From the sequence record NZ_CP110904.1: DNA of 64,000 nt, one strand, 5' to 3'. Shown here in pieces: positions 36,327 through 37,348 of this stretch. This DNA comes from a plasmid. The notes beneath the pieces are model-generated. The model was not told where the DNA came from. It was given only the letters and a program-made list of their open reading frames with translations, and did no database searches. A program made the position numbers and the translations under genes. Position 1 is the first letter of the stretch. Each line of letters starts with the position of its first letter.

Positions 36327-36938
36327 ATGGCGTTAAAAGGCAAATTAACTCTCAATGATGCAGATTATGCTCCATTTGAACTTAATGGGGTAGGCGTCTT
36401 TATGGCCTTTTCCGGAAACGGAATATACAGAAATCACGGTGGTTGCAGGGTTGTGCCGGATAATGGACCTAAGCGCTGGGCGTACCTCGCCGTTGTTCTC
36501 GACCTGTTCTCAAGAAAACCAGTGGGCTGGGCCATGTCGTTCTCGCCGGACAGCAGGCTTACCATGAAAGCACTGGAAATGGCATGGGAAACCCGTGGTA
36601 AGCCCGTCGGGGTGATGTTCCACAGCGATCAAGGCAGTCATTATACGAGCAGGCAGTTCCGGCAGTTACTGTGGCGATACCGGATCAGGCAGAGTATGAG
36701 TCGGCGTGGAAACTGCTGGGATAACAGCCCAATGGAGCGCTTCTTCAGGAGTCTGAAGAACGAATGGGTGCCAGCGACGGGCTATGTAAGCTTCAGCGAT
36801 GCAGCTCACGCAATAACGGACTATATCGTTGGATATTACAGCGCACTAAGACCGCACGAATATAATGGTGGGTTACCACCAAACGAATCAGAAAACCGAT
36901 ACTGGAAAAACTCTAACGCGGTGGCCAGTTTTAGTTGA
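36327..36938 (+). pseudogene. 5'-truncated IS3-family transposase (OrfB integrase core) fused to unrelated upstream codons
   Basis: From ~36478: [22 protein letters not shown]...[10 protein letters not shown]...[18 protein letters not shown] carries D, D and E of the DDE core. No OrfA or HTH part upstream. A TAG sits immediately 5' of the ORF. Confidence 0.75.
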
Positions 36939-36954
36939 CCACAACACTATGAAG

Positions 36955-37134
36955 CGTCTACGTGAAAGGCTTGCTATGGAATCTCAGGTTAAAGACCAGA
37001 ATGCAACCATACGGCGCGCGATGAAGGATCTGAAGAGCATTGGTTATCTTGATTACAACGAGACCAAAAAAGGTCGGGAAATCATGTTCATTGTTCATAA
37101 CCGCTCGGCGCGACTCGCGTTGACCGTCGCATGA
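36955..37134 (+). pseudogene. Possible C-terminal fragment of a replication-initiator-like (Rep) protein
   Basis: MKRLRERLAMESQ...IRRAMKDLKSIGYLDYNETKKGREIMF. It is followed at once by an iteron-like repeat array. Weak call. Confidence 0.25.
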
Positions 37135-37136
37135 AG

Positions 37137-37348
37137 GCGGTCACATTCATAACAATGACGCTACAAGGCGGTCATACTCATAATATTCCAATCAAAAGCG
37201 GTCGTTTTCATAAGTGCAGCCTATTCTGAGGGCTTTACGCCGTTTAAATGAGCCGAGTTTTATGAACGCAGCGATATCTTATCTGTGATCAAGTTATGAA
37301 AGTAACCGCCTGTTATGAATGCTCCCGCCCATTTATGATAGTGACCGC
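37137..37348. repeat. Iteron-like array: 3 direct copies of GCGGTCA-N3-5-TCATAA in 30-bp phase, then 3-4 inverted copies in ~20-bp phase
   Basis: Direct copies GGCGGTCACATTCATAA (37137), GGCGGTCATACTCATAA (37167) and AGCGGTCGTTTTCATAA (37197). Inverted copies TTATGAAAGTAACCGCC (37294), TTATGAATGCTCCCGCC (37313) and TTATGATAGTGACCGC (37333). Confidence 0.7.

Follow-up and report, generated by a model that had tools for sequence, protein, structure and literature searches.

Genes and features of the locus

The window, i.e. the whole stretch of DNA that was analysed, comprises 64,000 nucleotides of a plasmid (sequence record NZ_CP110904.1). Between its positions 36327 and 38527 the following elements were recognized: (i) the 3' end of an IS3-family insertion sequence, (ii) the 3' end of a plasmid replication initiator gene (rep), (iii) an array of six short repeats (iterons) and (iv) a tyrosine recombinase pseudogene, followed by a non-coding segment (Table 1).

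Table 1. Features of the analysed locus (positions refer to the 64,000-nucleotide window).
Feature	Position	Strand	Evidence
ISEc52-like IS3-family 3' stump	36472..36946	+	blastn, NCBIfam IS3 model, Pfam rve
Truncated rep: last two bases of codon 229, codons 230-290 (61 codons, 36949-37131), TGA stop (37132-37134)	36947..37134	+	identity to L001 (NZ_CP077332), Pfam Rep3_C
Direct iterons (n = 3), 16-bp cores 37137-37152, 37168-37183, 37198-37213	37137..37213	+	motif search, PWM, relatives
Spacer (80 bp) between direct and inverted groups	37214..37293		conserved among close relatives
Inverted iterons (n = 3), cores 37294-37309, 37313-37328, 37333-37348	37294..37348	-	motif search, PWM, relatives
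Xer-like tyrosine recombinase pseudogene, 255 codons, convergent with rep	37421..38188	-	translation, Pfam Phage_integrase
Remaining non-coding part of replicon-derived block	38189..38527		blastn against L001, junction comparison

The open reading frame (ORF) at 36327-36938 matched rve/rve_3 (integrase core) in Pfam and, of the 369 positions of the NCBIfam IS3 transposase model, covered only 229-368, in agreement with the sequence-only reading, which had described a transposase core lacking its N-terminal half and OrfA. In a blastn comparison, a full copy of ISEc52 aligned with ~96% identity from ~36472 to 36946, terminus included. Because this homology begins only at ~36472, codons 1-47 of the ORF are not part of the transposase. 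The stump corresponds to the last ~475 bp (~38%) of an ISEc52-like element and its right end is an exact IS terminus (...GTTGACCACAACA; terminal bases ...CACAACA). The left end with the left inverted repeat, OrfA, the frameshift region and the N-terminal part of OrfB (~62% of the element) are absent. A complete IS3-family element possesses two TG...CA inverted repeats and OrfA/OrfB with a DDE transposase; the stump lacks this set and cannot transpose.

The rep sequence begins immediately beyond the IS terminus. At the DNA level it is identical, without a single mismatch, to codons 230-290 of the gene encoding the 290-aa Rep of NZ_CP077332 (hereafter L001), and the break at codon 229 means that 79% of the gene has been lost and the last 21% kept. 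The translated fragment matched Pfam Rep3_C (WH2) with 21.6 bits (cutoff 21.1), WH2 (residues 230-290) being the sole Rep domain remaining in the window. The full-length relative, whose protein accession is WP_058663139, matched both Rep3_N (32.3 bits) and Rep3_C, i.e. it carries the WH1 and WH2 that characterize a P1/RepFIB-type Rep_3 initiator. The earlier suggestion of a ~60-codon fragment from the C-terminus of an initiator protein was therefore correct, and the initiator can be specified as a Rep_3 protein related to RepA of P1 and RepA of RepFIB. The NCBIfam profile search returned no family for Rep, and no meaningful match was obtained when the sequence of the complete Rep was searched against PDB (best E = 0.83, an unrelated kinase). 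No other Rep homologue was found within the 64-kb window.

An 89-codon ORF (36865-37134) has its ATG start codon within the IS end and continues in frame into the WH2 fragment. A promoter/terminator scan of 36300-38600 yielded fewer sites than shuffled controls and no promoter-like site upstream of this ORF, and expression of a WH2-only peptide from it is unsupported.

The iteron array

The array is built of six copies of the motif GCGGT-N5-TCATAA. The first direct copy is located 2 nt past the rep stop codon, and all three direct copies are oriented like the origin iterons of the intact replicon described below. The sequence-only reading had reported three direct repeats at exactly 30-bp intervals and, 90 bp further on, three to four inverted copies ~20 bp apart. 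Three direct copies are indeed present, at distances of 31 and 30 bp rather than exactly 30 bp, and the number of inverted copies is three, at distances of 19 and 20 bp, the first of them lying 80 bp beyond the last direct copy.

An independent PWM, trained only on 30 origin iterons from six other plasmids, scored the six sites at 30.0, 25.1, 23.9, 21.3, 19.0 and 12.8 bits, the weakest being the middle inverted copy; the best match elsewhere in the 64-kb window, at 14694, reached 16.8 bits. Within the window the motif was matched (at ≤1 mismatch) 8 times against 1.13 expected, and 8 matches were reached in 0 of 100 shuffles. Each of the six iterons has exactly the sequence found in functional plasmids. 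Among close relatives the overall identity of the array is 92-100%, the sequences being too alike to separate conservation of the iterons from that of the spacer.

Three further candidate sites were rejected. The supposed fourth inverted copy (~37261), situated within the spacer, scored -3.5 bits by PWM and contains only a degenerate half-site of the TCATAA type (TTATGAA). The inverted copy previously placed inside the rep fragment (37094) scored -3.2 bits and amounts to a TCATAA half-site only. The third candidate was the 18-mer AGCGGGCAGATTCATAAC at 38174-38191, which overlaps the start codon of the recombinase gene and is conserved in relatives. Its score was 16.3-19 bits when the sites of the window itself had been part of the PWM, and 14.4 bits with the independent PWM, i.e. 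below the best background match of 16.8 bits, and its presence is probably a matter of chance or coding conservation rather than the sign of a seventh Rep site.

The intact replicon in related plasmids

Megablast searches against plasmids revealed that the segment 36947-37420 is 99-100% identical to small and medium-sized plasmids of Lelliottia, Leclercia and Citrobacter, in which the matching region is annotated as the 3' end of a gene for a 'RepB family plasmid replication initiator protein' and the intergenic region downstream of it. The similarity extends further, as positions 36947-38527 of the window and 4001-5581 of L001 share 99.87% identity in blastn, with two mismatches. The intact replicon is thus carried by pP10164-3-type plasmids of Leclercia, Lelliottia and Citrobacter.

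The gene order in L001 is parA, parG, a non-coding region, rep, the array and the convergent tyrosine recombinase gene. The DNA preceding the intact rep contains a DnaA box (TTATTCACA) and an AT-rich stretch in which five GATC sites are clustered. It also contains five direct iterons of the same GCGGT-N5-TCATAA type, spaced at 21, 21, 21 and 23 bp and ending ~35 bp before the start codon. Downstream of rep lies an array identical in plan to that of the window, with three direct and three inverted copies. Of the two iteron sets of the intact replicon, the upstream one is the origin, and the downstream one corresponds to the array of the window. Since the origin set precedes rep in the intact copies and the array follows it, the array represents a control locus and not an origin. 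The DnaA box, the GATC cluster and the five ~21-bp-phased iterons are absent from the window, and no further iteron cluster or origin array was found within its 64 kb.

De novo motif finding was carried out on 13 replicons with Rep identities of 47-100%. Where Rep was at least 76% identical, five upstream iterons were present at 21, 21, 21 and 23 bp, and in all but one replicon the downstream array had three or four direct copies and, after these, two or three inverted ones; in the exception (L020, E. roggenkampii pDSMZ16690) the five origin iterons are present and a downstream array was not detected. The direct array is conserved in L001 and L009-L012, and the same layout occurs in 8 more diverged replicons. 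In the Leclercia plasmid p2 (L009), a 15-bp duplication was observed inside the inverted iteron group (2876-2947).

Each of the 13 replicons uses one motif in both its upstream and downstream arrays, and this motif varies between replicons. In L021, for example, GCGG is changed to ACGG in all eleven sites of both arrays, and the motifs of pO103, pKPN3 and pK29 are ATAAGCTGTAGTCAGT, CATACCGCAGTCAAT and ATTCAnnnAAATGCnTTT, respectively. The motif is shared by both arrays and covaries with Rep, and a PWM trained on origin iterons alone picks out the array of the window; the repeats therefore belong to Rep.

In most records the intact replicon is typed in PLSDB/MOB-suite as rep_cluster_2187, not as IncFIB, and it circulates in the genera Enterobacter, Citrobacter, Leclercia and Klebsiella. 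In the description of pP10164-3 it was recognized as a Rep_3 replicon whose Inc group was not assignable, and iterons were not mentioned (PMC5034289). What is new here is small, namely a map of the origin and the control locus, parallel to that of P1, for a poorly characterized group of replicons.

The adjacent recombinase gene

Codon 91 of the recombinase gene is a TAG stop (37916-37918), in place of GAG in relatives. The stop is common to L001 and a megaplasmid (L002), and the gene is intact in pP10164-3 and pW17-2 (L010 and L011). The only Pfam match of the 255-aa product is the Phage_integrase catalytic domain, and the XerD/XerC models align from approximately residue 33.

The 3' end of this gene is only 73 bp away from the array, and the order rep-iterons-recombinase is kept in many relatives and in RepFIB replicons. 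The sequence-only reading had accordingly proposed, as one of two possibilities, that the recombinase binds the repeats as arm-type sites and that the region is an attL or attR site. However, the same motif is found in the five origin iterons directly before rep, and it changes with Rep from replicon to replicon. The array is also retained where the next gene is a different one, encoding a Tn3 transposase (L009), an Rpn nuclease (L018), an SOS peptidase (L019) or a hypothetical protein (L021). An N-terminal arm-binding domain was not detected in the recombinase with Pfam, NCBIfam or the Xer models. The partner set of repeats that had been expected at the other end was not found in the 64-kb window, and the surroundings are a plasmid mosaic and not an island with att ends. 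The att interpretation is thus extremely improbable and the repeats are better assigned to Rep.

The following was additionally observed with respect to the recombinases. Plasmids of the pP10164-3 type carry two tandem paralogous tyrosine recombinase genes, whose products are 49% identical (L001 5661-6440, L011 2345-3124; also L002 9708-10487). In relatives from Cronobacter, Enterobacter hormaechei, Pectobacterium and Salmonella, a single recombinase, ~50% identical to the first paralogue, adjoins the iterons. The window has kept the first paralogue only, in an inactivated form.

Comparison with P1, RepFIB and mini-F

Rep and RepA of phage-plasmid P1 share 46.7% identity over 93% of the length. 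The annotated oriR of P1, comprising a DnaA site, five Dam sites and five incC iterons at 21, 21, 21 and 22 bp before repA, is organized like the upstream region of the intact relatives. The incA locus of P1 begins at the last base of repA and contains three iterons in the orientation of the origin followed by six inverted ones, with a spacing of 30-41 bp. Its copies 9-7 are the counterpart of the direct group described here and copies 6-1 of the inverted group. An incA-type locus repeats the motif of the origin, lies directly downstream of rep and is dispensable for initiation; the window array shows the first two of these properties. There are also differences: (i) the iteron sequence is GCGGTTACTTTCATAA here and GATGTGTGCTGGAGGGAAA in P1, (ii) the control iterons number six, compared with nine in P1, (iii) the inverted copies are 19-20 bp apart, compared with ~31 bp in P1, (iv) the partition genes are parA-parG, upstream of rep in the intact relatives, as opposed to parA-parB in P1, (v) the array is followed by the tyrosine recombinase gene and not by par, and (vi) the element is a plasmid, of which the window keeps only the incA equivalent, whereas P1 is a phage-plasmid.

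Similar values were obtained for RepA of RepFIB replicons (47-49% identity for pO103, pKPN3 and an Enterobacter IncFIB plasmid), and a Rep of IncHI2 plasmids is 61% identical. In RepFIB (P307, F, pO157) the layout BCDD'-repA-EFGHIJ(K) places repeats on both sides of rep, as in the intact relatives, although the iteron motif, the number of repeats and the pattern of their orientation differ. There, too, the downstream repeats are followed by a convergent tyrosine recombinase gene; as its product is 47-48% identical to the one described here, the rep-iterons-recombinase module must be old. The downstream repeats of RepFIB act in control and incompatibility: the EFGHIJ block alone, cloned in a P15A vector, displaced the FIB replicon of pO157, and the upstream block did not (PMC11983097). 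Mini-F (RepFIA), organized as ori2/incB-repE-incC, likewise combines a Rep_3 initiator with upstream origin iterons and downstream control iterons that handcuff the origin (PMC11983097). RepE is a more distant relative, and no significant direct similarity of Rep to the solved RepE structures was detected by sequence. The iterons of mini-F incC are described as all direct.

These comparisons bear on the other possibility put forward beforehand, that of an iteron replicon buried in the plasmid and truncated by IS activity, with the array as its origin. The first part has stood, as the C-terminus of a Rep_3 initiator is cut at the IS end, and the array consists of genuine, predicted initiator-binding iterons beside a rep remnant. 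The second part has not. In the intact copies, as in P1 and RepFIB (PMC11983097), the origin is the upstream set with its DnaA box, AT-rich stretch and GATC cluster, none of which is present in the window, and the combination of a 30-31-bp spacing with an inverted group is of the control-locus type. Moreover, visual inspection of the 80-bp spacer revealed no DnaA box, and the window encodes no Rep. It is consequently very improbable that the array is an origin of a buried secondary replicon, either functional or one that could be activated by Rep supplied in trans.

We therefore interpret the segment 36947-38527, with a probability of about 0.9, as a 1.58-kb relic of a P1/RepFIB-type iteron replicon, in which the array represents incA-type control iterons and the replicon itself is dead. 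The interpretation is based on the identity of the parts, their architecture, their homology and the covariation of the motif with Rep. The replicon is considered dead because the origin, the promoter and 229 rep codons are gone and the window holds no other Rep homologue. A fitting label would be 'truncated rep and incA-type control iterons of a pP10164-3-type replicon', naming it neither an origin nor an att site, and in replicon typing the relic should not be counted as a working replicon. As such, the orphaned control iterons of a dead replicon are an ordinary relic and an element of a textbook kind.

Junctions, distribution and history

At the junction between the IS and rep, GTTGACCACAACA is directly followed by CTATGAAGCG. 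The break coincides exactly with the IS terminus, which points to an IS-mediated event and not to a random deletion. This event may have been an insertion into rep, or the formation of a cointegrate with a later loss of the other side. The relic marks a past fusion of a small plasmid with an IncHI-type megaplasmid at the IS end. The same stump with the same end is present in many IncHI-type megaplasmids, in which its right flank is unrelated DNA.

An identical IS/rep junction was found in 3 of the 72,556 PLSDB plasmids, all of them megaplasmids (Enterobacter sp. MGH 7, Enterobacter sp. MGH 14 and one K. oxytoca strain), and an exact search for it in species-representative genomes gave no match. 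Given this distribution, the junction seems to be a scar of recent date and not a feature under selection. The three PLSDB megaplasmids retain ~4.5 kb of the small-plasmid backbone, compared with 1.58 kb in the window. The homology of the window to pP10164-3-type plasmids ends at 38527 and unrelated DNA begins at 38528; a match to this second junction (38527/38528) was absent from PLSDB.

In IncHI-type megaplasmids, breaks recur at the right end of the ISEc52-like stump. In the window the identical stump is followed by the rep relic, in L007 by a helicase gene region, and in L008 it is broken off at 36629, with an IS110-family element next to it.

Possible activity of the array in trans

It is established for P1 incA and F incC that handcuffing by downstream iterons limits initiation. 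By homology with these loci and with repeats E-J of RepFIB, the downstream iterons of the intact pP10164-3-type replicon would be expected to bind Rep. The Rep-bound copies would then pair with Rep-bound iterons of the origin (handcuffing), which would limit the copy number and cause incompatibility. The array of the window should be inert in cis, as the window lacks both an origin and Rep. Should a plasmid with the cognate Rep enter the cell, the array could bind this Rep and handcuff the origin of the incoming plasmid, whose copy number would then fall. Incompatibility in trans against cognate plasmids is, on this basis, plausible as the only residual activity left to the array. The effect may be weak, as the megaplasmid, which is probably of low copy number, carries only six sites, while the displacement by FIB repeats was obtained with a multicopy vector (PMC11983097). 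An array that still bound Rep could influence which plasmids are able to coexist with the megaplasmid, probably to a modest extent.

It may be asked whether the relic has been retained as a useful orphan incA-like locus that excludes or displaces pP10164-3-type plasmids sharing the hosts of the megaplasmid. Such a role would be in line with the displacement of a cognate replicon by the downstream FIB iterons alone (PMC11983097), with the sequence identity of all six iterons to those of functional plasmids, and with the circulation of the cognate replicon in the same genera. Furthermore, the accessions of the 60 top Rep matches included none next to those of the three relic carriers, a number of carriers (n = 3) that gives no statistical power. 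On the other hand, the event is rare and recent (three PLSDB carriers), the flanking genes are decaying, as illustrated by the TAG codon of the recombinase, and the dosage is low. The block is, moreover, only ~0.1% diverged from its source, so that its conservation is uninformative with regard to selection. We therefore regard a useful role as unlikely. Still more doubtful is the proposal that the orphan incA-like array, possibly together with a WH2-only Rep peptide encoded by the 89-codon ORF, is retained as a trans-acting incompatibility determinant against pP10164-3-type plasmids. If this were true, the retained array would be nature's equivalent of the iteron-based cassettes engineered for plasmid curing.

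DNA flanking the relic

To the left of the IS stump, two ORFs with HNH-endonuclease motifs (32746-33405 and 34319-35260) are located amid small hypothetical genes, and the block 32746-35260 is conserved in the backbone of IncHI-type megaplasmids. To the right of the relic, the segment 38532-39050 is ~85% identical to Salmonella plasmids. The region from ~38950 to 40600 has a GC content of ~70% and contains a 403-aa ORF (38979-40190) followed by DUF6884 and acyltransferase genes; this block is 87-96% identical to Enterobacter plasmids of ~78-115 kb.
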